The notes under the pieces were generated by a model. The model saw nothing but the letters and a program-made list of their open reading frames with translations. It did not search any database and was not told the origin of the DNA. A stretch of DNA of 43,803 nt from a phage, in the NCBI GenBank assembly GCA_018167155.1, contig GCA_018167155.1_4332.1; one strand, written 5' to 3'. The translations under genes were made by a program, and so were the position numbers. Position 1 is the first letter of the stretch. Each line of letters opens with the position of its first letter. Positions 7,030-38,651 of the stretch are shown here, piece by piece.

Positions 7030-7056
7030 TAAAAAGAAAGGGGCGTTAAGCCCCTT
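7030..7056. terminator. Hairpin terminator between convergent genes
   Basis: AGGGGC-GTTAA-GCCCCT stem-loop; on the minus strand it is followed by TTTCTTTTT (terminates the XRE gene). Confidence 0.5.
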
Positions 7057-7261
7057 CACCGAACGCCAGCCACTTGGCGTCTACTTCCAGCACTTCCGCC
7101 AGTTTAAACAGCGTTGCCGGGCGGACGTCCTGAGTTACACCGAGCGCAAGTTGGTTAATTGCGCCCTGGGAAACACCAGCCAGGACAGCCAAACGGCGCT
7201 GGGAGATGCCGAGTTCTTTACGGCGTTGTTCTACACGGATGCCTAGTTCAGATGGTTGCAT
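7046..7261 (-). CDS. XRE-family (Cro/CI-type) helix-turn-helix transcriptional regulator
   Basis: 71 aa; LGISQRRLAVLAGVSQGAINQLALG is a classic HTH_3 motif. The only leftward gene inside the rightward operon; SD AAGGAG upstream of the ATG. Confidence 0.75.
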   Translation of the reverse strand: MQPSELGIRVEQRRKELGISQRRLAVLAGVSQGAINQLALGVTQDVRPATLFKLAEVLEVDAKWLAFGEGA

Positions 7262-7281
7262 GTCAATTACTCCTTAGTTAG

Positions 7282-7354
7282 TTGATATGTGAATAGTACC
7301 ATATTAATTATTTTATAAAAGCACATTGACATGTGAATAGTTCGCTATTATAGT
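7282..7354. promoter_or_regulatory. Divergent control region with two copies of the AATAG-N4-CTATT operator-like palindrome
   Basis: Copy 1 AATAGTACCATATT at 7292-7305; copy 2 AATAGTTCGCTATT at 7336-7349 inside TTGACA(7326-7331)-N17-TATAGT(7349-7354), which drives the + gene at 7386. A minus-strand TACTAT over copy 1 may serve the XRE gene. Confidence 0.55.
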
Positions 7355-10014: not shown

Positions 10015-10166
10015 GCACGATTCAAGAACTGCATAAAAGCTATCTACAACAACACCGAAACGGAGCAAAGCTAGGCCGGAGCAAAGCCGTATACCGTGTA
10101 TTCAGTATGGTAATTAGAGACGAGTCGGCGAAAATTATCCGTATGACAAAAGAAACGTTTAAATAA
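10011..10166 (+). CDS. Hypothetical small protein
   Basis: ORF track 9981..10166; ATG at 10011 overlaps the nuclease stop as ATGA. Confidence 0.4.
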   Translation: MSTIQELHKSYLQQHRNGAKLGRSKAVYRVFSMVIRDESAKIIRMTKETFK

Positions 10167-10170
10167 AGTG

Positions 10171-10199
10171 TTGACACCTGAATAGCGAACTATTATAGT
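10171..10199 (+). promoter_or_regulatory. Sigma70-like promoter TTGACA-N17-TATAGT with AATAG-N4-CTATT palindrome in the spacer
   Basis: TTGACA 10171-10176, TATAGT 10194-10199, palindrome AATAGCGAACTATT at 10181-10194. Confidence 0.6.
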
Positions 10200-10254
10200 T
10201 CTAATCACTGGCCGGGCCGTTCCCGGAGTAAACTGAAAACTGAGGAATCGAAAA

Positions 10255-10898: not shown

Positions 10899-10925
10899 CT
10901 AAGGCCCTTCATTGGGCCTTTTTAC
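10899..10925 (+). terminator. Rho-independent terminator
   Basis: AAGGCCC-TTCATT-GGGCCTT stem-loop followed by TTTTTA. Confidence 0.55.
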
Positions 10926-10935
10926 CGGAGTCAGA

Positions 10936-11409
10936 ATGGAACATATAAAAGATTTTCTTAGTTATAACCGAGAAACCGGAATATTCACATGGATACAACC
11001 TACGTACAGACGAGGAAAACCCGGAGACATCGCAGGATGCATCAATAGTAGCGGATACTGGCGAATACCTTATATGGGTAGATATTACATGGCCCACAGG
11101 CTTGCTTGGTTTTTCGAGTACGGTGAATGGCCCGAGGGGCCTCTTGACCACATAAACCGTGACAGGTTAGACAATAGGATTTCTAACCTAAGGAAAGCAA
11201 CCACCGCAGATAATGTGCGAAACGCTAAAAATAAGGGAGCGAGAACGGGAGTTAAGGGAGTAGTTAAAAACGGCAACCGATTTTATGGGCGGGTACATTT
11301 TAACTACAAAAGTTATAACGCGGGCAGCTACGGAACTCTTGAAGAAGCAGAAAGCGCTGTAAAGAAATTAAGAGAAAAACTGCATAAGGAATTTTATTGC
11401 CATGACTAG
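10936..11409 (+). CDS. HNH homing endonuclease with AP2-like DNA-binding domain (paralog 1)
   Basis: ORF track 10912..11409; ATG at 10936. HINRDRLDNRISNLR is an HNH motif; GVKGV...GNRFYGRV...EEA is AP2-like. Confidence 0.7.
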   Translation: MEHIKDFLSYNRETGIFTWIQPTYRRGKPGDIAGCINSSGYWRIPYMGRYYMAHRLAWFFEYGEWPEGPLDHINRDRLDNRISNLRKATTADNVRNAKNKGARTGVKGVVKNGNRFYGRVHFNYKSYNAGSYGTLEEAESAVKKLREKLHKEFYCHD

Positions 11410-13600
11410 TTTATTATACCTGGATACCGAGACATTCTCCGAAGCAGACTTAAAGAAAGTCGGGTCGTATGCGTATGCGGAGCACCCAACGACAGAGGTT
11501 ATAATTTGTACGTATGCCGTTGACGACGGTCCTGTAGAAGTATGGGATTGCACTTCCGAACCAGTAATGCCAATAAGCCTACGCGTGGCGCTCCGTAATG
11601 TTATGCGTGGGCGTATGAAAATCGTGGGCCATAACTTTTTAATGTTCGACCGCCTAATCATGAAACATTGCTGGGGCTTTGATATTCCGGTAAGCAACAC
11701 CATCGATACTATGATTTGGGCGTTTCGTCACGCGCTGCCGGGATCACTTGATGCGTTGTGCGAAGTGCTTGGCGTGTCCGCCGACAATGCGAAAGATAAA
11801 CGCGGCAAGGCGCTGATTCAGCGTTTCTCTAAACCGACACCGAAGAACTACAAAATCCGCCGTTACACCGCCGAAACACACCCGGATGAGTGGGCGCTGT
11901 TCATCAAGTACGCCGTTAGTGACATCACTGCGATGCGTGAAGTCTTCCATAAGCTGCCACGTTGGGGTAACTCCGAGTTCGAAGACCGGGTACTGGAACT
12001 GGACCAGTTAATCAATGACCGTGGGTTTAAGGTCGACGTTGCACTGGCGGAAGCTGCGATTGAAGCAGTGGAGAAGCACAAGGCACAGTTACAGGAAGAA
12101 GCCCAACGAAAATACGGCGGCTCACTTACTGGTAAGGACTTTCTGCCGATTCTGCGTGAACTTGCGCCGGCGCACCGAATCCACAACGCACAGAAGTCGA
12201 CGCTGAATGACCTGTTGGCGGATGATGATTTACCGGACGATGCTCGAACGATTATCGAAATGCGCCTGGGGGCCGCGTCCACTGCGTCAACGAAATATAA
12301 CCCATTGCTGCTGGGCCGCTCGTCTGACGACCGCCGCCGTGGTTGCTTACAGTACGGTGGGGCGAAACGTACTCTGCGGTGGGCGGGTAAAGGCTTCCAG
12401 CCGCAGAACCTGGCGCGCGGGTACTATCACGATGATGAACTGGATAAAGGCATTTCAGCGTTACTTAAAGGCCGCGCGCATCGCCGTTTCGATGTCGCTA
12501 AGCTAACAGCATCAACGGTGCGAAGCTGCATCATACCGGAAGCTGGACATAAGTTTGTCGTTGCCGATTACTCTAACGTCGAAGGCCGTGGGCTTGCGTG
12601 GCTGGCGGGCGAAGAAACCGCGCTTGATACGTTCCGCGCCGGACTGGATATTTATTGCGTAACCGCAGGTAAGATGTTTGGCATGGACCCAGATGATATT
12701 AAGAAAAACTTTAAGGAAATCAGACAGATAGGTAAGGCTTGCGAGCTTGGCCTCGGCTATGAAGGCGGCGTCGGAGCGTTCGTTACGTTTGCTAAAAACT
12801 TAGGTCTTGACCTTATTGAGATGGCAAAAACAATGGACGGTACTTTCCCTGATCATATATGGGCGGCTACCGCACGTGGTTATGAATGGGCGCGTATCCA
12901 GGAAGCAAAGCGACCACCGCATCCTGGTGAAAAGGACGACCGACCATCGTATATTCTGGACAAGAAAGTGTGGCGCACATGCGACGCAATCAAGCGTATG
13001 TGGCGTGAGTCACACCCTGAAACAGTAGCGTTCTGGCGCGACCTTAAAGACGGAATTTTAGCCGCTGTGCGTAATCCTGGTCGTGAATTTTGGGCGGGAG
13101 CACACTTGCGCAGGAATGGCGAGCGCGCTATCCGAATATGGAGAACAGTAGAATTTGATTCATCCGGTAGGAAGGTTCCTGGTTGGTGGTTGTGCGTGGA
13201 GTTGCCGTCGGGCCGTATCCTTTCGTATCCGGGAATCGGAGTTAGCGTGACAAAGGAAACAGACGAAGACGGACGGGTAAACACGAATGTGCGAATCAAG
13301 TACCAAGGTGAAAACCAGTTAACCCGCCAATGGACTACCCTGTACACCCACGGCGGTAAAGCCTGTGAAAACATTGTTCAGGCGCTGTGCCGTGATTTAC
13401 TCGCATATGCGATGGTTAATGTTGAGGGTGGCGGGTATCCCATCGTGCTTTCGGTACACGATGAACTGGTATGTGAAACTCCGGATACGCCCGAGTACAC
13501 GGTGGCTGAACTGGAAAAATTAATGTGCGCGTTGCCTGAGTGGGCGGAGGGGTTCCCTCTTGTAGCGGAAGGTGCGGAGATGAAGCGCTATGCTAAGTAA
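11402..13600 (+). CDS. DNA polymerase, family A, with N-terminal 3'-5' exonuclease domain
   Basis: 732 aa; LYLDTETF (exo I), DYSNVEGRGLAWLAGE (motif A), RQIGKACELGLGYEGG (motif B), VLSVHDELV (motif C). Confidence 0.85.
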   Translation: MTSLLYLDTETFSEADLKKVGSYAYAEHPTTEVIICTYAVDDGPVEVWDCTSEPVMPISLRVALRNVMRGRMKIVGHNFLMFDRLIMKHCWGFDIPVSNTIDTMIWAFRHALPGSLDALCEVLGVSADNAKDKRGKALIQRFSKPTPKNYKIRRYTAETHPDEWALFIKYAVSDITAMREVFHKLPRWGNSEFEDRVLELDQLINDRGFKVDVALAEAAIEAVEKHKAQLQEEAQRKYGGSLTGKDFLPILRELAPAHRIHNAQKSTLNDLLADDDLPDDARTIIEMRLGAASTASTKYNPLLLGRSSDDRRRGCLQYGGAKRTLRWAGKGFQPQNLARGYYHDDELDKGISALLKGRAHRRFDVAKLTASTVRSCIIPEAGHKFVVADYSNVEGRGLAWLAGEETALDTFRAGLDIYCVTAGKMFGMDPDDIKKNFKEIRQIGKACELGLGYEGGVGAFVTFAKNLGLDLIEMAKTMDGTFPDHIWAATARGYEWARIQEAKRPPHPGEKDDRPSYILDKKVWRTCDAIKRMWRESHPETVAFWRDLKDGILAAVRNPGREFWAGAHLRRNGERAIRIWRTVEFDSSGRKVPGWWLCVELPSGRILSYPGIGVSVTKETDEDGRVNTNVRIKYQGENQLTRQWTTLYTHGGKACENIVQALCRDLLAYAMVNVEGGGYPIVLSVHDELVCETPDTPEYTVAELEKLMCALPEWAEGFPLVAEGAEMKRYAK

Positions 13601-13807: not shown

Positions 13808-13998
13808 GCAACAAACCATTTAGTAAGAAACTAGCCGCGTTAGTGGATATGCCAGAATGGGAATTTATCATGGTAATGGGAGATGGGTTCTTTAGTGACG
13901 TTTGTGCAGGATGTACGCACAAAGGTGTTTACTACTCAGAACACGACATCTACCAAGCGTACTTCCTGCGTAACCCGGATGCGGAGCCGTTGTTATGA
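13804..13998 (+). CDS. Hypothetical protein
   Basis: ORF track 13795..13998; ATG at 13804. Confidence 0.45.
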   Translation: MSNKPFSKKLAALVDMPEWEFIMVMGDGFFSDVCAGCTHKGVYYSEHDIYQAYFLRNPDAEPLL

Positions 13999-14492
13999 AA
14001 GCACCAAGTGACGATATAAAAGATTTTCTGTCATACGACCCGGATACCGGGATATTTAAATGGGTCAAGCACAGATGCCAGACCGCGAAACCTGGAGATG
14101 TTGTTACCTACAAGGACCGTAAAGGGTACATATTGTTAGGATGGAATAGGGTGTATTACCGCGCACACAGGCTGGCGTGGTGGTGGGTATACGGAGAGAT
14201 GCCAACTAAGCAAATAGACCATATTAACGGCATACGGGACGATAACCGGATTTGTAACCTACGGCTTGCGGATGAATTTCAACAGAACCATAACCGCAAG
14301 ACCCCAGTTACGAACACCAGCGGCGTGAAAGGGGTTAACTGTAGTAAGCCTCATAATGCTTGGTGTGCTCGAGTTGCTTTTAAAGGTACACGCTATCAGA
14401 TTGGGTATTTCCAGAACCTAAATGAAGCAGAGGAATCGCTGAGAGAATTTAGGGCAAAACTGCACGGAGAGTTTTGCAACCATGGCGACTAA
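13995..14492 (+). CDS. HNH homing endonuclease with AP2-like domain (paralog 2)
   Basis: 165 aa; shares DIKDFLSYD...TGIF.W, AHRLAWW..YGE.P, DHINGIRDDNRICNLR and GVKGV...EEA with the paralog at 10936. Confidence 0.7.
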   Translation: MKAPSDDIKDFLSYDPDTGIFKWVKHRCQTAKPGDVVTYKDRKGYILLGWNRVYYRAHRLAWWWVYGEMPTKQIDHINGIRDDNRICNLRLADEFQQNHNRKTPVTNTSGVKGVNCSKPHNAWCARVAFKGTRYQIGYFQNLNEAEESLREFRAKLHGEFCNHGD

Positions 14493-14796
14493 AGAGGGCC
14501 GCGTACAGAAATACGCAAAAGAGCGATTCGAGGCCATTGGTGGCCTCGTTCGTAAACTTTCCTACGAAAACAGACGCGCAGCGATGGATTTGTTAGTGGT
14601 CCTGCCCGGCGGCATCATCTGGTTCGTCGAGATTAAGAAAGACGAAAACACGAAGCCAGACCCGCACCAGCTACGGGAACATGAGAGATTCCGGAAACGT
14701 GGTGCGAATGTTTTTGTCGTTGGTTCGTTTAAACAGGTTGACACCCTAATAGCGAACTATTATAGTCAGCCCTACACCAACAATATAAGGAATTGA
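14482..14796 (+). CDS. VRR-NUC domain nuclease
   Basis: 104 aa; DLLVVLPGGIIWFVEIKK...QLREHERFRKRGANVFVV matches the VRR-NUC PD-(D/E)XK pattern. Confidence 0.6.
   Translation: MATKEGRVQKYAKERFEAIGGLVRKLSYENRRAAMDLLVVLPGGIIWFVEIKKDENTKPDPHQLREHERFRKRGANVFVVGSFKQVDTLIANYYSQPYTNNIRN
14738..14766 (+). promoter_or_regulatory. Sigma70-like promoter TTGACA-N17-TATAGT with AATAG-N4-CTATT palindrome, inside the 3' end of the VRR-NUC gene
   Basis: TTGACA 14738-14743, TATAGT 14761-14766, palindrome AATAGCGAACTATT at about 14748-14761. Confidence 0.55.
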
Positions 14797-24183: not shown

Positions 24184-26456
24184 TCACTTAAAGCCTGGTG
24201 CGTTTCTTGTAGCCTTCCTAGCTTTCGATATTTTGCTGTTACTATTCTGCAGCGAAGCAGCAACTTGTTCCTCTATGATGATACGCAAACGGCCTTCTTC
24301 GTCCTGTTCAACGCTGGTGTTGCCAATTTGTGCGCTGGTGTTATTTATAATGCTGATATTGGCCGGCCCGGTACCGCCGCCGTTCTGCCCCATAATTTCC
24401 TTCATCTGCTGTGCTGTGCGTACACGAGACGCGCCAGCTGGCATGATAACTTCTGGTTTACCACGTTCGGCGATAGTAGAAGCCTGCCCCGCAGATAACT
24501 GACCGCCTTGTTCACGGGCGGACCTGATAGCGGAAATCTGCGCCATACCAGCCCCAACGGCAGCAGCAGCGGCTACAGGTGCCAGGAACGGACCAACAAC
24601 AGGGATAGCGGCCGTTGACTTATACGCTTCAATAGCTGCGGTGTACGTGGCGATAGTGGCCTGTACGATAGCGAATGCCTTATACGCGCCAGAAGCCTCG
24701 CCCAACGCGGACCCGATATTTGAGGCCATGTTACCAAAGGCCGTTGCCGTTGCCTCAGCACGCTTGGTGGCGTATTGCTCGTTGATGGCGTTAAGTGCCG
24801 CTTGATACTGTTCCTCTTTAATCAGACCCTGCTCGCGGTACTTATCAGCTACCGCCAGTTTCTGCTGTTCCTGGATATCGAGAAGCTCAAGCTCCGTGGC
24901 ATTCTGGCCCATAATTTGAGCCATGAAGTCGTCGCCTTTCTGCTGCTTTTCCTGGGCTTCTTTCTGACGTTTATCCAGTTCATCTTGCCGTTTTTGCCCT
25001 GCTTCAAGGACAATAGCCGTTTTTGCTTGCTCGTATTCTTTCAGAGACAACGCGCCCTGGCTGTAAAACTCTTTTGCTTTAGCCAGTTTCTGCTGTTCCT
25101 GGGCGTCAATAGCCTTTAACTCGTCGTTGTTCTGACGGGCCAAAGTGTCGAGGTAATCTTGCGCCTGATTGCGCAATTGCTCCGCCTTCTTAGCGGCGGC
25201 TTTTGCCGCTTTATCGTCGGCGTTTCCGGTGCCGCCAGTTCCGCCCTTTTTATTAACAAGGCTGGCTAAGTCAATTTCTTGCTTCTTGCGCTCGTCATAC
25301 TGCTTGCGCTGTTCCTCAATTTCTTTCTTACGCTGCTTAGACCTGTCGGTAATGGCCTGGGATTCCGCCGCTGCGCGTTTTATGCTGGCGGCGTATGCGG
25401 CGTCAGCCTCTGCGGTCAGGTTTTTAAATGTGAGCGCTGCCGTTTTGCTCGGGTCAAACACATCAGCAAGGGTCTGACCTAACGCTACAGCGTAATCGTC
25501 AATGCGCTGGAACCACGCAATAACCTCGTGGAACGTCTGCTGAATGTCAGGCAACCACTCACGGATAGCATCAGGTATAGCCCCCAGCGAGTCTGACATA
25601 TCAACGGATTTGTCCTCGGTGTCGTATGCCAGGTCATTCAGGGCATCAGAAATAAACTTGAACGATTCATTGAACAGTGTCACCCAATCCTGGAGCGTGG
25701 CTGCTATCTCATTAGACGCTATGGCGTCGGTGAGTGCCGCGATAGCATCTTCCGCTCTCGCGGCTTGCTCACCTACGGCGTCACCAAAACCGGATTGCGC
25801 TACCGCAAGAACAAGACCATCGAAGGAGTCGGCGAGGCTCGACAACTGGCCATCTAAGGTCTTCGAACGCGTCTCCATAGCTCCGGCGAAATCAGTGTTG
25901 CCGATGTTTAGCAGGTATTTCTGAATCTCTTCGGAGTTCTTCTTAACGGTAGTCGTTACGCCGCGGAACGTGAACGAAACGGTATCTGCCTGTTGGGAAG
26001 ACTTAATGCCGAACTCTTTCAGCCGCTCAAACTCAAAGGTACTGGCGTCAGCCACAGCCTCAATCATCTGATTAAGGTCTTTACCCATAGCCGCCGCGGT
26101 GTTGCCGTAGGAGATTAACGCCTCTTTGCTGGGATTCAGGCCGAGGGCTACAAGTTTAGTGAAACCCTCTACCGCCTGATTGAGGCCATACGGGGTTTCT
26201 TTTGCGAACTGTTGCAGGACGCTGAAAGCCTTAGCCGCGTTCTCGGCGCTTCCGGTCATTGTGATGAGGCCGGAATTCAGCTTATCGAAGTTGCGCTGAG
26301 AGTCCACCAGCGCACTGAACACCTGTTTGGCGGTTTCCAGACTGACAATGGCAGCCGCGGCAGCACCTGCGGCTTTGGTAAGCCCGTTCAGTTGTGATGT
26401 GGTTTTATCGACGCCGGTCGAAGATACTCGTACTATCAAGCTAGCGGTATCAGCCA
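24184..26456 (-). CDS. Tail tape measure protein
   Basis: ORF track 24184..26472; about 757 aa, Ala/Gln/Glu-rich helical low-complexity sequence, follows the G/T chaperone pair. Confidence 0.85.
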
Positions 26457-26782
26457 TGATTTCTACCTTCAAAGATTGCTTCTAAGCCCATGATAATGTC
26501 TATCTCGAACAGGCTAAGCTGTTTTTGCGTAACATCGAGATAGGCTTTCAGGTCTTGCCACGTAACGGATTCTCTTGCAAACAATACTACAGCGTCCTCG
26601 CGCACGTGTCGCGTAAACTTAATGTCGCAATACGTCTCAAAGGTGGATATAAAAAGGGGCGGGCATTCTGGCCCACCCCGTCGCGCTGCACGTTTTTTCT
26701 TATCGATTACACCCATCGCGATAAGCGCCTGTTCGTGCCCGTCAGCTATAGAATCAAACTCTCTGATTTTATGCTTATCCAC
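26450..26782 (-). CDS. Tail assembly chaperone, gpT-like frameshift extension
   Basis: 110 aa ORF in the -1 frame relative to the upstream G-like gene; that frame stays open upstream across the G stop. Confidence 0.5.
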   Translation of the reverse strand: MDKHKIREFDSIADGHEQALIAMGVIDKKKRAARRGGPECPPLFISTFETYCDIKFTRHVREDAVVLFARESVTWQDLKAYLDVTQKQLSLFEIDIIMGLEAIFEGRNHG

Positions 26783-26814: not shown

Positions 26815-27231
26815 CTACTTTTCCTGTAATGCTTTGCGCTCAGCGTTATGGAACGCAGCTACCTGTGTGCCTAATGCCTTGAACTGGTCGAGCAACTTGT
26901 TAAACGCTTCCTTAGAGAAGGGCTCATCAAAGCTCCAGCCGTTTACAACTTCTGCTGCAAGTTGCCGGTTGAGGTCTTCCGCCAGTTCGTTAACCGCCAG
27001 GTTATATTCAGTATAGTCGCCGGTTTCTTTGGCGGCTTTTTCCAGTTCTTCAAAACGCGCCAGTCCGCGACGGTACGCGATAATGAAAGCACGCCCCGCT
27101 TTAACGGCGACATCCGCATCCGGGCTTACAACATTAAGCCATTCCCCCGAGTCTTCACCATTCGGCAGGAGAATCGGCATCTTCTTGCCTACCAGCGCTT
27201 TCTCTTCGAAATAAAAATCAGAAAGTTTCAT
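26815..27231 (-). CDS. Tail assembly chaperone (gpG-like)
   Basis: 138 aa acidic protein just upstream of the tape measure gene; candidate slippery site GGAAAAG before its stop. Confidence 0.6.
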   Translation of the reverse strand: MKLSDFYFEEKALVGKKMPILLPNGEDSGEWLNVVSPDADVAVKAGRAFIIAYRRGLARFEELEKAAKETGDYTEYNLAVNELAEDLNRQLAAEVVNGWSFDEPFSKEAFNKLLDQFKALGTQVAAFHNAERKALQEK

Positions 27232-27338
27232 TCTTTAATCCTTTGGTTAAGAGGTTACAGGTTAAGGAAAATGCGCCAGACGGGAACCACCCGCTTTTCG
27301 TGTGCGACACTAGGCGCAAAATTATTCTATCACATTAC

Positions 27339-27367
27339 TTGCACACCCCAATATAATAGGGTACTAT
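27339..27367 (+). promoter_or_regulatory. Sigma70-like promoter TTGCAC-N17-TACTAT with AATAG-N4-CTATT palindrome
   Basis: TTGCAC 27339-27344, TACTAT 27362-27367, palindrome AATAGGGTACTATT at about 27355-27368. Confidence 0.6.
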
Positions 27368-27396
27368 TCACTTACACCAACAATGAGGGGTTTAAA

Positions 27397-27588
27397 ATGT
27401 CAAGTTTACCAGTTTCCTTAATCCTGTTTGCACTTCTCGCCTATTTCGCACCTTTCCTGGTTGCATATTTCCGTAACCATAAAGCGAAGTTGGCGATATT
27501 CATGGCCAACCTGTTTCTCTGTTGGGTTCTGCTGCCGTGGGTATTTATTTTAATCTGGGCGTGCAACTCGAATGTTAACGAGAAGTGA
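27397..27588 (+). CDS. Superinfection immunity (Imm-like) small membrane protein
   Basis: 63 aa; YFAPFLVAYFRNHKAKLAIFMANLFLCWVLLPWVFILIWA matches the Imm_superinfect pattern as I recall it. Track ORF 26962..27588 is a longer frame; the ATG at 27397 follows SD GAGGGG. Confidence 0.55.
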   Translation: MSSLPVSLILFALLAYFAPFLVAYFRNHKAKLAIFMANLFLCWVLLPWVFILIWACNSNVNEK

Positions 27589-27626
27589 GCTAGTATAGGA
27601 CAAATCCTAAACACGAGGAAGTAAGC

Positions 27627-28757
27627 ATGGCCCGTAAGAAAATAACCGACGAACAGTTACAGGAAGAATTGAACGCCGGAATGAAGAATATCGATATAGC
27701 CCGTAAATACGGCATCTCAGACCGCGTTATTCGTATCCGTAAAGCGAAGCTGGCAAAGAAAGGCGTAGGCCACGGCCGCGACGTCAGCCACCTTGTACCG
27801 GACGGCTACAAGATTAAAGGCACGTCGTCACTGGTGGACGAGTTCGGCAACACTAAGCTGCAATGGGTTAAAACCGACACTGACGCCGAACGTCAGGTCG
27901 AGTTGATGAAAGCCGTAATCGAAGGCATGAAGTCAGAGATTACGCCGGTTGCGCCTGTTAAAGCTGCACGCGTCAAACGCGACGATAAACTACTCAATCT
28001 TTACACTGTATCTGATTTCCATCTCGGTATGCTGGCCTGGGCCGACGAGAGCGGCGACGACTGGGATATGAAAATCGCGGAAGACCTGTTCTCTCGTTGG
28101 TTCGACGCGGCGTTTCAGAAAGCGCCAGATGCAGGAACAGGGGTTATTAACCTGCTGGGCGACTTCGCGCACTTCGATAGTCTGGATGCCGTTACCCCCG
28201 AGTCGCGTCATGTGTTGGACGCAGACACTCGCTACCAGAAACTGGTGCGCTACATGATTCGTATGGTGCGCCGTGTTGTTGATATGGCGCTGGTTAAGCA
28301 TAAAAATGTCCGCTTGCTCATCGTGCAAGGGAACCACGACGAGAGCGGAATGATTTGGTTGGCTGAGATGTTTAGCACTCTGTACGACAACGAGCCGCGT
28401 GTGTTCGTCGATACGTCGCCGGATGTGTACAAGATGGTGCAACACGGCAAAACGACATTGTTCTTTACCCACGGACATAAAGCGCGCTTCGACGCTATCG
28501 AACCGGTTATGATTGCCAAGTTCCGCAAAGCGTTTGGTGAGAGCGTTTACAGCTACGCCCACGTAGGACACCTACACCATCAGAAGATTGTAGAAAGCCG
28601 TAATATGATTGTTGAGCAACACCGCACCTTAGCGGCTAAAGACGCCTACGCCTCCCGCGGCGGATGGATGTCAAGCCGCAGTGCAAACGTAATTACTTAT
28701 AGCGCCGAATATGGCGAGGTTGCACGTTTAACTATTTCACCGGAGATGCTGGGATGA
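27627..28757 (+). CDS. Calcineurin-like metallophosphoesterase with N-terminal HTH-like domain
   Basis: 376 aa; ordered motifs SDFHLG (DxH), GDFAHFD (GD), QGNHDE (GNH[DE]), THGH, GHLHH (GHxH); N-terminal KNIDIARKYGISDRVIRIRK looks like an HTH. Confidence 0.65.
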   Translation: MARKKITDEQLQEELNAGMKNIDIARKYGISDRVIRIRKAKLAKKGVGHGRDVSHLVPDGYKIKGTSSLVDEFGNTKLQWVKTDTDAERQVELMKAVIEGMKSEITPVAPVKAARVKRDDKLLNLYTVSDFHLGMLAWADESGDDWDMKIAEDLFSRWFDAAFQKAPDAGTGVINLLGDFAHFDSLDAVTPESRHVLDADTRYQKLVRYMIRMVRRVVDMALVKHKNVRLLIVQGNHDESGMIWLAEMFSTLYDNEPRVFVDTSPDVYKMVQHGKTTLFFTHGHKARFDAIEPVMIAKFRKAFGESVYSYAHVGHLHHQKIVESRNMIVEQHRTLAAKDAYASRGGWMSSRSANVITYSAEYGEVARLTISPEMLG

Positions 28758-28984
28758 CTTCAAAATACAACCGAACAATGACAAACACTCACGGCAGCAC
28801 TATGACCGTAGACGTTTACGATGTTCTCCGTGCATTCGACATCCGTGACCCCGCACTACAGCACGCATTGAAGAAACTATTGTGTATGGGTCTTCGCGGG
28901 CACAAGGACACCGGAACCGACTTAGCGGAAGCAATTGAAAGTCTGGAGAAGTTACGAGAGTACCGTAGTAATATAGATGAGTAA
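28754..28984 (+). CDS. Hypothetical protein
   Basis: 76 aa, ATGA-coupled to the phosphoesterase gene. Confidence 0.45.
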   Translation: MTSKYNRTMTNTHGSTMTVDVYDVLRAFDIRDPALQHALKKLLCMGLRGHKDTGTDLAEAIESLEKLREYRSNIDE

Positions 28985-28991
28985 GAATGTA

Positions 28992-29150
28992 ATGAAAACA
29001 ATATACGTAATCCGCGTATATGACGAAGAATGGGATGAGTGGGTTGGTATTTATGCTGTTGGTAGTAAGGAAGAGGCCTCGAAAGAAATGACAGAACGTA
29101 GTAACCGAGGTCAGTTAACTAACTTCTATGAAATGCCATTCAAAAGTGAG
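28992..29150 (+). CDS. Hypothetical small protein (hand-called, 52 aa)
   Basis: Reads MKTIYVIRVYDEEWDEWVGIYAVGSKEEASKEMTERSNRGQLTNFYEMPFKSE; ends 5 nt before the terminator. Confidence 0.3.
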
Positions 29151-29154
29151 TGAG

Positions 29155-29183
29155 AAAAGGCCCCGTTAGGGGCCTTAGTTTTA
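29155..29183. terminator. Bidirectional terminator (strong on minus strand after the tail tube gene)
   Basis: AAAAGGCCCC-GTTA-GGGGCCTT-AGTTTTA, a near-identical copy of the element at 17224. Confidence 0.7.
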
Positions 29184-30353
29184 GGCGTAACTAATACGCT
29201 GGATGACAATAGATGACTGGTACTGGTTGCCTGTGGACTGCCCTTCTATACTTTGAGTAATTGATTCCGGACCAGATATTTCTGGTGTAACAGCCGTAAG
29301 TTCGGCGCGTTTCAAACTGAAAGACATAGCCCCGTTTACCCCAGCCAGAATAGAGTTAATCTCTACCTGCTGTTCGTTGATAAACTTCTGAATCATAGCC
29401 ATATCGTACAGCTTACCGGAGATGGAGAAGGTGTTAGCTGCGCGGCTACGTTCCACAAACGCAACGTTAGAGTTGCCGAGTTCGAACTGTGCGGACGCGC
29501 TGTTGTCGTTGGTGATGGTAAGGCTATCGCAACGCAACGGGGTAGAACCGTCGAACACAGAAACGTCGACCGAGGAGAACGGCTCATCACCAAACGTAAC
29601 GGAAGAGAAGTCAGAACCAGACGGCGCCGCGGTGAGAATCTCCTGGCTGCGACCGATGAACGGGAAGCTGCCCGTTACCATCGCGTTAACGGCCTGCTCA
29701 ACGGTAAAACCAGAAACTTCCACGCCTTTGGTTAACGTGTACGCGTCAGTCCCGCCGCACTGGCCTTTGTACCAGGTGAGGATAGAGAACGTCTTACACG
29801 CGTTACCAGTTTCCAGTTTGTCGCCGGTCTTAGCCGCAGTAGTGGCAGTCTCTGTGGTGAGGGTGTGCTGAATGCCCGCACCGGTAACTACCAGTGCCTC
29901 TACCGAGGTAACGATAAACGGTTTTGCGTTGTCGCCCGTCAAGTCGGTAAACGCAATCAGGTCACCCACTTCAACGCCGTCAGTAATGAAGCTGCCATCA
30001 GCACGAGTGAACGTCTTGCCCGCCGGTGCGACGGTAATCGATAGACTGGACAGGGAAACACCGGATTGCCACGTAGAGCCTAAAGCACCCGCCAGCCAGT
30101 CGTCCTGGCTTTTCGAGCTAAGCTCGATCGCGTATTCACCGCTAACCTGTTTGTTACCGGTGCGGATGGATGTAGTCTCACGGCTGCCGTCCAGTTCGTT
30201 GGATGTCAGCGTGTCTCGGGTAATAGCAGGAACGCCACCTGTGTTACGCAACGGCGACCATACCGGGTTAGTCGGTGTTACGCCCGGGGTGACTTCCGCC
30301 ACATAGAATTGCGCGGTAGTCGCGCCCTTAAAAGGAGTTGTAGCCATATTCAC
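29181..30353 (-). CDS. Major tail (tube) protein
   Basis: 390 aa Thr/Ser/Gly-rich protein upstream of the chaperone and tape measure genes, followed by a strong terminator. Confidence 0.65.
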   Translation of the reverse strand: MNMATTPFKGATTAQFYVAEVTPGVTPTNPVWSPLRNTGGVPAITRDTLTSNELDGSRETTSIRTGNKQVSGEYAIELSSKSQDDWLAGALGSTWQSGVSLSSLSITVAPAGKTFTRADGSFITDGVEVGDLIAFTDLTGDNAKPFIVTSVEALVVTGAGIQHTLTTETATTAAKTGDKLETGNACKTFSILTWYKGQCGGTDAYTLTKGVEVSGFTVEQAVNAMVTGSFPFIGRSQEILTAAPSGSDFSSVTFGDEPFSSVDVSVFDGSTPLRCDSLTITNDNSASAQFELGNSNVAFVERSRAANTFSISGKLYDMAMIQKFINEQQVEINSILAGVNGAMSFSLKRAELTAVTPEISGPESITQSIEGQSTGNQYQSSIVIQRISYA

Positions 30354-36235: not shown

Positions 36236-36264
36236 TTGCAGACACCAGTATAATAGGGTACTAT
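36236..36264 (+). promoter_or_regulatory. Sigma70-like promoter TTGCAG-N17-TACTAT with AATAG-N4-CTATT palindrome
   Basis: TTGCAG 36236-36241, TACTAT 36259-36264, palindrome AATAGGGTACTATT. Confidence 0.6.
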
Positions 36265-36298
36265 TCAGTTATCGAAGCGAGAGATAAGGGGCTTAAAG

Positions 36299-36535
36299 AT
36301 GAAAGAATTAATTATCGCGGTATTGACGACACTGGCAGTTTCGCTGGCAGTTTCGCTGGCAGTTTCACTGGTAATTGCTGCTGGTGTACGTAGCCTAGAT
36401 AAACACGAGTGTGAGAACTACGGAGATGTCACAGGCAGAGAGGTAATGTATAGTTACACAACTTGTTATGTGAAAACTGATAGAGGTTTTATCCCTCGTG
36501 GAGAACTTAATTTTAGAGCAGCGACACATGAATAA
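36299..36535 (+). CDS. Small membrane-anchored protein with tandem AVSL repeats
   Basis: 78 aa; N-terminal hydrophobic LIIAVLTTLAVSLAVSLAVSLVIAAGV encoded by three tandem 12-bp repeats, then a 50-aa Cys-containing domain; own promoter and terminator. Confidence 0.6.
   Translation: MKELIIAVLTTLAVSLAVSLAVSLVIAAGVRSLDKHECENYGDVTGREVMYSYTTCYVKTDRGFIPRGELNFRAATHE
36334..36369 (+). repeat. Three tandem 12-bp repeats (GGCAGTTTCGCT-like) inside the CDS
   Basis: Directly visible: ctggcagtttcgctggcagtttcgctggcagtttcactgg. Confidence 0.7.
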
Positions 36536-38112: not shown

Positions 38113-38141
38113 TTGCAGACACCAATATAATAGGGTACTAT
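38113..38141 (+). promoter_or_regulatory. Sigma70-like promoter TTGCAG-N17-TACTAT with AATAG-N4-CTATT palindrome
   Basis: TTGCAG 38113-38118, TACTAT 38136-38141; the promoter-to-SD sequence is nearly identical to the 36236 promoter. Confidence 0.6.
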
Positions 38142-38167
38142 TCAGTTAACTTAAACAGGAGATGAAA

Positions 38168-38329
38168 ATGGTTACTTTGATTACTTGGGAACACGAAAAT
38201 AGTCAACCTGAAACGCGTGAATTCGAAACTGTAGCGGCTTGCTACCGCCTGGCGTCAGGCGGATTCTATAAATCACAGATTGTAAATGAGTTTGGAGTGG
38301 TGGATTATGAGTTTACGAAACAATCTTAA
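38168..38329 (+). CDS. Hypothetical small protein (hand-called, about 53 aa)
   Basis: ATG 6 nt after AGGAG; reads MVTLITWEHENSQPETREFETVAACYRLASGGFYKSQIVNEFGVVDYEFTKQS. Confidence 0.35.
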   Translation: MVTLITWEHENSQPETREFETVAACYRLASGGFYKSQIVNEFGVVDYEFTKQS

Positions 38330-38651
38330 GAACCACTTGAAGGTCTACGGGCCTTATGGCTTGCATTCATGGAACGGTGGGTATGACGTAAACGATGACC
38401 TGCCGATACGTAAAATAGCACGCGCGGCGCGACGCAATGTAAAGCCGGGTGACGTGCTAGTCATACGAGATAATAATGTCATTGTTGAGGTTGAGAAAGT
38501 TCATGGCATGTTTCTCACAGTAATACCTGTTGATGTTGCTTTGCGTGACGCAAGGCCCTACCGAGAAGCTGGGGGTGGTAAAACTGGTAAATACACATAC
38601 GGCAGGATTGAGATACATAAAACACATCTTGATAAAGTTAAGGCCCCATAA
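38307..38651 (+). CDS. Hypothetical protein
   Basis: ORF track 38286..38651; internal ATG at 38307 after GGAGTGGTGG; 114 aa basic protein. Confidence 0.5.
   Translation: MSLRNNLKNHLKVYGPYGLHSWNGGYDVNDDLPIRKIARAARRNVKPGDVLVIRDNNVIVEVEKVHGMFLTVIPVDVALRDARPYREAGGGKTGKYTYGRIEIHKTHLDKVKAP

Follow-up and report, generated by a model that had tools for sequence, protein, structure and literature searches.

A 43,803 nt stretch of phage DNA (contig GCA_018167155.1_4332.1 of NCBI GenBank assembly GCA_018167155.1; hereafter called the window) carries a short plus-strand gene cassette embedded in a tail module that is encoded on the minus strand. The cassette encodes an Imm-like superinfection-immunity protein, a 376-amino acid metallophosphoesterase (MPE) with an N-terminal helix-turn-helix (HTH) domain, and two small proteins (termed p76 and p58). 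This arrangement raises the question of whether the cassette is a moron-like accessory insertion whose first two genes act together, as proposed in an initial annotation made from the sequence alone, or a standing part of the phage genome with some other role. Our comparisons show that the cassette is a known, subfamily-wide feature; hundreds of genomes already contain it in annotated form, but it is experimentally uncharacterised. We consider it probable, if well short of certain, that it constitutes a co-regulated operon of independent genes, whose products are predicted to act in exclusion (Imm), to serve as a core DNA nuclease (MPE) and to resemble DUF3310 proteins (p76).

Organization of the cassette

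The cassette and its immediate surroundings comprise the following features.

27339-27367, plus strand: sigma-70-type promoter TTGCAC-N17-TACTAT, overlapping a palindromic operator AATAG-GGTA-CTATT at 27355-27368
27397-27588, plus strand: Imm, 63 amino acids, with the Shine-Dalgarno sequence GAGGGG upstream
27627-28757, plus strand: HTH-metallophosphoesterase (MPE), 376 amino acids, with GAGGAAG upstream
28754-28984, plus strand: p76, whose start ATG overlaps the MPE stop codon (ATGA)
28977-29153, plus strand: p58, with an 8 nt overlap with p76
29157-29176, both strands: terminator-like hairpin AAGGCCCC-GTTA-GGGGCCTT, between the convergent cassette and tail tube gene
29181-30353, minus strand: tail tube gene (PF18906, 7.7e-35)
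26815-27231 and 26450-26782, minus strand: two chaperone open reading frames (ORFs), matching Phage_TAC_4 and Phage_TAC_18, both within phrog_15027

The promoter, the Imm-like gene, the gene for a 376-amino acid HTH-MPE, the two small genes and the terminator hairpin described in the initial annotation are thus all present, and the four closely packed plus-strand genes were all confirmed. The two chaperone ORFs jointly cover a single PHROG profile as a G/T pair. Furthermore, the cassette was described as a plus-strand transcription unit of its own, equipped with an operator-bearing promoter and a terminator, and this is borne out by conservation in relatives and by recurrence of the promoter motif (see below).

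To place the cassette, the DNA from position 27200 to 29250 was compared with public phage records. Matches, with the cassette likewise positioned between tail tube and chaperone genes, were found in 447 records, nearly all from Salmonella Jerseyvirus and Escherichia Kagunavirus phages of the subfamily Guernseyvirinae. The top match, phage ZCEC5 (MK542015), shares 90% DNA identity with the cassette over 100% of the query and has an identical Imm-MPE-p76-p58 gene order. Because of these matches, and because 98%-identical versions of the 376-amino acid protein reside on contigs of ~44 kb, the window is essentially the whole genome of a virulent Kagunavirus-like siphophage. Between ~17 and 43 kb, its minus strand carries the genes for tail spike, tail, tape measure, chaperone, tail tube, connector, capsid, portal and terminase proteins, and its plus strand from 4.7 to 17 kb carries genes for a helicase-primase, an exonuclease, a Gp2.5-like single-stranded DNA-binding (SSB) protein, a DNA polymerase, a methyltransferase and a helicase.

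Conservation of the cassette and variability of its slots

A survey of 50 IMG/VR loci, gathered via a conserved element upstream of the cassette, plus annotated relatives yielded 37 complete cassettes of 1.7-3.1 kb. The MPE gene is present in all 37. The first slot holds Imm in 31 cassettes and an unrelated 108-amino acid signal-peptide protein (phrog_14165) in five, and is empty in one. The slot after the MPE gene is occupied either by p76 or by a HAD PNKP-type phosphatase together with a deoxynucleoside monophosphate (dNMP) kinase, but never by both. Optional companions of p76 in relatives are a 66-amino acid ORF, an HNH endonuclease, a Rha/ANT protein or p58, the last of which is present in only some of the surveyed cassettes. 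The Guernseyvirinae phages ZCEC5, Bas74 SonjaBuckley, fBC-Eco01 and Jerseyvirus jersey carry the cassette at the same site and in the same orientation, with the same promoter, operator and terminator as in the window. Differences among relatives are confined to the slots, and consist of the extra 66-amino acid ORF, HNH endonucleases, Rha/ANT, the HAD phosphatase plus dNMP kinase, and the signal-peptide protein that replaces Imm. An imm gene has been reported in all Jerseyviruses (PMC8425127).

The proposal of a moron-like insertion is right in that the cassette has its own promoter and terminator, but it does not fit the 447 matching records, the invariant MPE gene, or the ordinary GC content of the cassette (0.487 versus 0.508 for the window). 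Because MPE occurs in all complete cassettes and the GC content is ordinary, the cassette is best read as an ancestral feature of the Guernseyvirinae, in which the MPE is constant while the slots around it change. Moron-like behaviour is confined to the first slot (Imm or the 108-amino acid protein), and Imm itself is an accessory, swappable gene. Nor is the cassette undescribed, since GenBank records already label its first two products 'superinfection immunity protein' and 'DNA repair exonuclease/calcineurin-like phosphoesterase'. The initial annotation had named conservation in all relatives, with a documented replication or repair role, as evidence against an accessory system. The cassette is indeed conserved in all relatives examined, but a replication or repair role exists as annotation only.

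A divergent metallophosphoesterase with a DNA nuclease-like fold

The MPE protein contains all of the signature motifs of its superfamily (DxH, GD, GNH[DE], H and GHxH). Among 70 homologues with 31-49% identity, residues D130, H132, G178, D179, N236, H237, H282 and H317 are invariant, and H315 is nearly so. A confident AlphaFold model (pLDDT 92.6) exhibits the calcineurin-like MPE beta-sandwich fold and divides the protein into three parts.

8-44: three-helix LuxR/GerE-like HTH
61-103: beta-hairpin plus helix
119-376: binuclear MPE core

Because the sequence is divergent, superfamily membership rests on these motifs and on the fold, and together they sustain the earlier assignment of a calcineurin-like MPE with an N-terminal HTH. 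The protein matches phrog_704, 'DNA repair exonuclease', over its full length (E of 6.3e-166; residues 4-375 on profile positions 2-389 of 390). This family comprises 4,633 representatives of 50%-identity clusters at E <= 1e-3, and MPE homologues were found in 2,051 phage records, among them those of T1, Webervirus, Dhillonvirus and Bonnellvirus. The N-terminus gave weak matches to GerE/LuxR HTH domains and to a 'late transcriptional activator' PHROG. A search of PDB chains with the MPE sequence found nothing meaningful (E of 0.69), a search with its profile returned only sub-threshold matches to GerE, Mre11/SbcD and MPE nucleases, and an NCBIfam search gave nothing useful. Phosphoesterases are not mentioned in a published catalogue of escape mutants (10.1101/2022.08.27.505566).

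The model is closest to the nucleases PolD-DP1, Mre11 and SbcD, and its nearest structural neighbours are DNA exonucleases. The initial annotation had offered exclusion, degradation of second messengers and nuclease activity as possible roles, and of these a nuclease fits best. Mre11 and SbcD possess a C-terminal capping domain, whereas the MPE of the window lacks one and ends in core strands (residues 353-370); its extra domains are instead N-terminal (the HTH and the beta-hairpin extension). No Rad50/SbcC SMC-like partner is encoded in the window, where all ORFs of >=200 amino acids were assigned to other functions.

The MPE superfamily also includes cyclic-nucleotide phosphodiesterases, and the top Foldseek match of the model is Rv0805 (E of 1.8e-8). 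These data speak for the earlier suggestion of a role in anti-defence, in which the protein would hydrolyse the cyclic (oligo)nucleotide second messengers of CBASS, Pycsar, Thoeris or type III CRISPR systems. The anti-defence enzymes Acb1 and Apyc1 have a 2H phosphoesterase or metallo-beta-lactamase fold, which is not matched by the calcineurin-like MPE of the window. We regard such an anti-defence function as quite unlikely.

Two phage enzymes provide precedents for the favoured nuclease reading. Phage T5 requires its A1 metallophosphatase to degrade host DNA, and A1 alone suffices for this; A1 also reportedly dampens pre-early transcription (bioRxiv 10.64898/2026.04.02.716235). A1 has the same structural neighbours as the MPE of the window (double-strand-break repair nucleases and the PolD proofreading subunit), but is 556 rather than 376 amino acids long. 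Similarly, Gp48 of mycobacteriophage A10ZJ24 is an early-expressed MPE with phosphodiesterase and DNase activities that breaks host DNA and blunts host defences (PMC12287305). Gp48 is smaller, acts in a different host phylum, and has its first motif at residue 10, leaving no room for an N-terminal HTH. A1 and Gp48 are cited by analogy, as cases in which phage MPEs destroy host DNA, and not as demonstrated homologues.

Imm and its relation to the metallophosphoesterase

The assignment of the first gene as a superinfection-immunity gene stands. Imm matches PF14373 (Imm_superinfect) with 43 bits against a cut-off of 27.9 (E of 4.2e-11; 41 of 42 profile positions) and phrog_1039, 'immunity to superinfection' (8.8e-21). 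Kyte-Doolittle analysis (19-residue windows of >=1.6) reveals two hydrophobic stretches, at residues 1-26 and 30-60. T4 Imm is likewise a small two-span protein of a virulent phage, although it is longer, and the hidden Markov model match of the window protein exceeds the curated threshold of the family. T4-like imm genes show weak tblastn similarity to the window gene (E of 2e-3 to 6e-3). Imm is a T4-Imm-family two-span inner-membrane protein that would most likely block DNA entry by superinfecting phages.

Imm and MPE are adjacent and co-transcribed in 31 of the 37 cassettes, which led us to weigh the 'undescribed accessory system' of the initial annotation as a coupled device, wherein Imm would sense or admit superinfecting DNA and the MPE nuclease would destroy it. 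The pre-early operon of T5 has a similar layout, with a 65-amino acid two-span membrane protein beside A1, and also includes a DNA-binding protein (A2) and a nucleotide phosphatase (dmp). However, MPE is kept in the six cassettes where Imm is swapped (five) or absent (one). Moreover, this Imm was found in 364 phage records versus 2,051 for MPE, such that at least about 1,700 records hold MPE but not this Imm, and Imm homologues occur in T4-like phages that lack this MPE. The T5 resemblance is not accompanied by sequence similarity, and the membrane and DNA-binding partners show no convincing similarity either. For want of significant similarity, we do not regard the cassette and the T5 pre-early operon (A1, T5.005 and A2) as homologous, and only their organization is analogous. 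A coupled Imm-MPE system is accordingly very unlikely in our judgement, and the Imm-MPE pairing appears to be a lineage-specific adjacency only.

The slot after the metallophosphoesterase gene

The HAD_PNKP phosphatase (6e-19) and kinase follow MPE in 10 of the 37 Guernseyvirinae cassettes. The mutual exclusion of this pair and the 76-amino acid DUF3310-like gene suggests that they are alternative solutions to one task. The p76 protein matches phrog_2452 (2.4e-36), carries the conserved motif DVYDVL..PA.QHALKKLLC.GLRGHKD and has no Pfam match at E <= 0.1. Its model (pLDDT 87.8) consists of a beta-hairpin and three helices. A Foldseek search of BFVD placed p76 in a phage family with a domain that also recurs within larger fusion proteins bearing ligase or phosphodiesterase annotations, and gave weaker matches to DUF3310, SaV-like and 'nucleotide kinase' proteins (E of 8e-3 to 3e-2; TM of 0.53-0.71). 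We therefore describe p76 as a small soluble protein, apparently translationally coupled to MPE, whose modelled fold resembles DUF3310/SaV-like domains and T7-type 'nucleotide kinase' domains. Two other origins, as a remnant of the 189-amino acid kinase and as a relative of the Bonnellvirus dGTP_diPhyd_N protein, were ruled out by BLASTP and hhalign. The small, soluble p58 has no Pfam, PHROG or NCBIfam match.

Outside the Guernseyvirinae, MPE is found in a range of gene orders. In the well-studied phage T1, which is known to break down host DNA, it follows helicase, VRR-NUC and Dam genes and precedes a holin gene. The order is MPE, HAD phosphatase, dNMP kinase and holin in Webervirus TAH8; MPE, pseT and a P-loop protein in Yersinia phage PY100; and DNA polymerase, exonuclease, endonuclease, MPE and a PNK-type HAD protein in Bonnellvirus usur. 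MPE lies after lysin in Dhillonvirus and after holin and endolysin in Rhodobacter phage RcWata, and in Campylobacter phage F356 a DNA ligase gene is followed by an MPE gene without the HTH, near a resolvase gene. This Imm is absent from all of these loci. The recurring partners of MPE are enzymes of DNA metabolism and of nucleotide-phosphate chemistry. In addition, HTH-MPE resides one to four genes from a holin or endolysin gene in six unrelated lineages (T1, PY100, Webervirus, a Vibrio phage, RcWata and Dhillonvirus). Proximity to lysis genes could simply reflect where an early or middle operon ends, or could have a further meaning.

These partners also bring an end-healing role into consideration, in which MPE would be a 2',3'-cyclic phosphodiesterase or 3'-phosphatase that works with the HAD PNKP phosphatase and the P-loop kinase in mending cuts made by defence nucleases. 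Clostridium thermocellum Pnkp uses an MPE domain for end healing. Consistent with this role are the phosphatase and kinase that follow MPE in the 10 cassettes noted above and also in Webervirus, PY100 and Bonnellvirus, and the DNA ligase that adjoins MPE in the Campylobacter phage. However, the P-loop partner matches the dNMP kinase family phrog_139 rather than polynucleotide kinase, and the window lacks both partners and has no ligase among its large ORFs, all of which are assigned. The DNA exonucleases that are the nearest structural neighbours and the HTH DNA-binding domain of MPE also argue against end healing, which we judge unlikely.

A shared operator and a candidate repressor

The 20 nt core of the cassette promoter, TGAATAGTACCCTATTATAT on the opposite strand, occurs seven times in the window where no copy is expected, and the palindrome AATAG-N4-CTATT occurs at nine sites against 0.17 expected. 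The palindrome is upstream of the cassette in almost all fetched Guernseyvirinae loci. The full arrangement TTGCA[C/G]AC...ATAATAGGNTACTATTCA is present in five copies, each facing a downstream transcription unit. One of these is the cassette; the other units, and further features that carry the palindrome or lie beside it, are as follows.

36299-36535, plus strand: unit with the full motif
38162-38651, plus strand: unit with the full motif
2613, leftward: unit with the full motif
3854, leftward: unit with the full motif
10166-10200 and 14739-14767: perfect TTGACA-17-TATAGT promoters with the palindrome (AATAGCGAACTATT) in the spacer
7046-7261, minus strand: 71-amino acid XRE/Cro-type HTH protein (PF01381 HTH_3, 2.3e-12)

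The two perfect promoters precede the Gp2.5-like SSB gene and the methyltransferase/helicase genes, respectively, and in them the palindrome is 6 nt nearer to the -35 element than in cassette-type promoters.

Within the cassette promoter, TTGCA and TA-TAT do not vary between Kagunavirus and Jerseyvirus; in the latter the site is TTGCAT-17-TATTAT. A simple promoter scan favoured an overlapping alternative, ATCACA-17-TATAAT, which we discarded because neither Jersey nor the paralogous promoters conserve its -35 element. In phage fBC-Eco01, the same motif has been reported as a PHIRE 'phage promoter' (tgAATAGTa-ccTATTat-T) and credited to a phage-encoded RNA polymerase (PMC9825357). The assigned ORFs of the window genome, a close relative of fBC-Eco01, include no RNA polymerase gene. 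The repeated motif is better read as a putative sigma-70-type promoter plus operator than as a promoter for a phage RNA polymerase.

The gene for the XRE/Cro-type protein has two tandem operator copies in its own promoter region (7292-7305 and 7336-7349). This protein is probably an autoregulated repressor of the nine-site operator regulon, including the cassette promoter, a link that we infer from the arrangement of sites. The gene (region 7046-7353) lies antisense inside the plus-strand replication module and has a strong terminator downstream.

The HTH of MPE is another conceivable ligand of the AATAG-N4-CTATT operators, in which case MPE would control the regulon and the catalytic domain would be secondary. 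This HTH weakly matches LuxR/GerE domains and the 'late transcriptional activator' PHROG, and T5 A1 reportedly dampens pre-early transcription, as noted above. Set against this regulatory role are the better candidacy of the XRE/Cro protein, with its two operators upstream of its own gene; the invariance of the catalytic residues across the 70 homologues (H315 nearly so); and the absence of the palindrome from the fetched fragments of other MPE-bearing phage families, which is a limited test. We found no support for the MPE HTH as the operator binder, and this role is highly improbable compared with repression by the XRE/Cro protein.

Several further observations concern the units under this promoter. 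Two plus-strand islands within the minus-strand head module carry the same promoter and operator. The island at 36248-36535 encodes a 78-amino acid protein with an N-terminal membrane anchor (36299-36535), and that at 38125-38651 encodes a 55-amino acid protein (phrog_4653) and a 121-amino acid protein for which no family match was found. The local GC content of both islands drops to about 0.43. The leftward unit under the operator promoter at 2613-2632 ends in ORFs at 97-1136, which by eye look like genes for holins and an endolysin. If this reading is true, the regulon may extend to lysis genes besides the replication genes and the cassette.

Flanking structures and other features of the window

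The hairpin that follows the cassette has the form AAGGCCCC-N4-GGGGCCTT, with an invariant stem and a variable loop in seven relatives. Its folding z-scores are -3.6 on the plus strand and -4.4 on the minus strand, and the annotation of phage fBC-Eco01 gives it as a terminator on both strands. A terminator scan did not call the hairpin at 29157-29176 because the T-runs on its two sides are short. It nevertheless looks like a bidirectional terminator. Because the hairpin folds and is annotated bidirectionally, the cassette can be placed at a natural transcription boundary, with a terminator after the tail tube gene.

On the other side of the cassette, a conserved structured element separates the chaperone start codon from the cassette promoter.

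27276-27322: conserved structured element of 47 nt

This element is nearly invariant from Kagunavirus to Jerseyvirus, more so than the coding DNA on either side. Its fold comprises three helices (93% of cells paired) with three covarying pairs (GTGT/ACAC to CGGT/ACCG; CG to UA), which derive from only about two lineages and with helix 2 fixed by the search pattern. Plus-strand C.A mismatches become G.U pairs on the minus strand, which hints at a possible role as RNA leader in the minus-strand mRNA for the chaperones and tape measure. A scan of the window with Rfam found no family.

Elsewhere in the window, paralogous HNH endonuclease genes (phrog_99) at 10912-11409 and 13995-14492 flank the DNA polymerase gene. 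Internal residues 444-537 of the polymerase ORF (11402-13600) match an 'endonuclease' PHROG and may belong to an inserted homing element or an intein.

Proposed function of the operon

In the explanation that we favour, host RNA polymerase would transcribe a conserved operon that is embedded antisense at a transcription boundary throughout the Guernseyvirinae. The first slot would encode a swappable envelope protein, in this case Imm, which would act alone as an exclusion factor. MPE would be an HTH-tethered, metal-dependent DNA nuclease of the Mre11/SbcD/PolD-DP1 neighbourhood that operates without a Rad50-like partner. It would degrade host DNA, process intermediates of phage replication or recombination, or both, thereby feeding nucleotide salvage. 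The downstream slot would supply functions in nucleotide metabolism, through the DUF3310-like p76 in this phage and through the HAD phosphatase and dNMP kinase in others. The operator-controlled promoter would be shared with replication genes, the two antisense islands and the Cro-like repressor gene, whose product probably controls all of them. In RNA sequencing of a Kagunavirus, imm shares a temporal class with the DNA polymerase and methylase genes (PMC12645636).

A number of points weigh against this explanation. The same RNA sequencing is coarse in time and the class is called 'late', such that it provides no more than a hint (PMC12645636). The match of the cassette promoter to the sigma-70 consensus is weak (about 7 of 12 positions by our own count), and the promoter proposed in the initial annotation is thus backed by conservation in relatives and not by a consensus score. 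The Pfam scores of MPE fall just under the gathering thresholds (24.6 versus 27 for Metallophos; 19.4 versus 21.5 for Metallophos_2), and its profile similarity to Mre11/SbcD is insignificant (E of 0.24). There is no significant similarity between MPE and T5 A1, with a best BLASTP E value of 0.19 and an hhalign alignment of 20 columns around motif III (probability 17%). Also, no biochemically characterised member of the HTH-MPE family was found in our searches, and host DNA degradation is not known to us for Guernseyvirinae.

A bolder proposal is possible, although we hold it only tentatively and think it more doubtful than not. HTH-MPE proteins (phrog_704), which occur in T1-like phages, Dhillonvirus, Guernseyvirinae, Bonnellvirus and marine phages, might be the host-chromosome-degrading nucleases that serve nucleotide salvage in these virulent phages. 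They would be stand-alone, HTH-guided and Mre11-like enzymes that converge functionally with T5 A1. In the Guernseyvirinae, such a nuclease would be co-expressed with an envelope exclusion factor as a Cro-controlled host-takeover operon.

The cassette is a standard, already annotated feature of the Jersey/K1-type phages that are widely used in phage therapy and biocontrol. Envelope-targeted proteins with predicted exclusion functions are naturally exchanged in its first slot. Together, the shared operator and the candidate Cro-like repressor provide a regulatory map that can be tested, in a group of phages for which the transcription programme has hardly been described. Finally, HTH-MPE is among the more widespread uncharacterised enzymes of virulent enterobacterial phages, and the precedents of T5 A1 and Gp48 make a direct test of its activity worthwhile.

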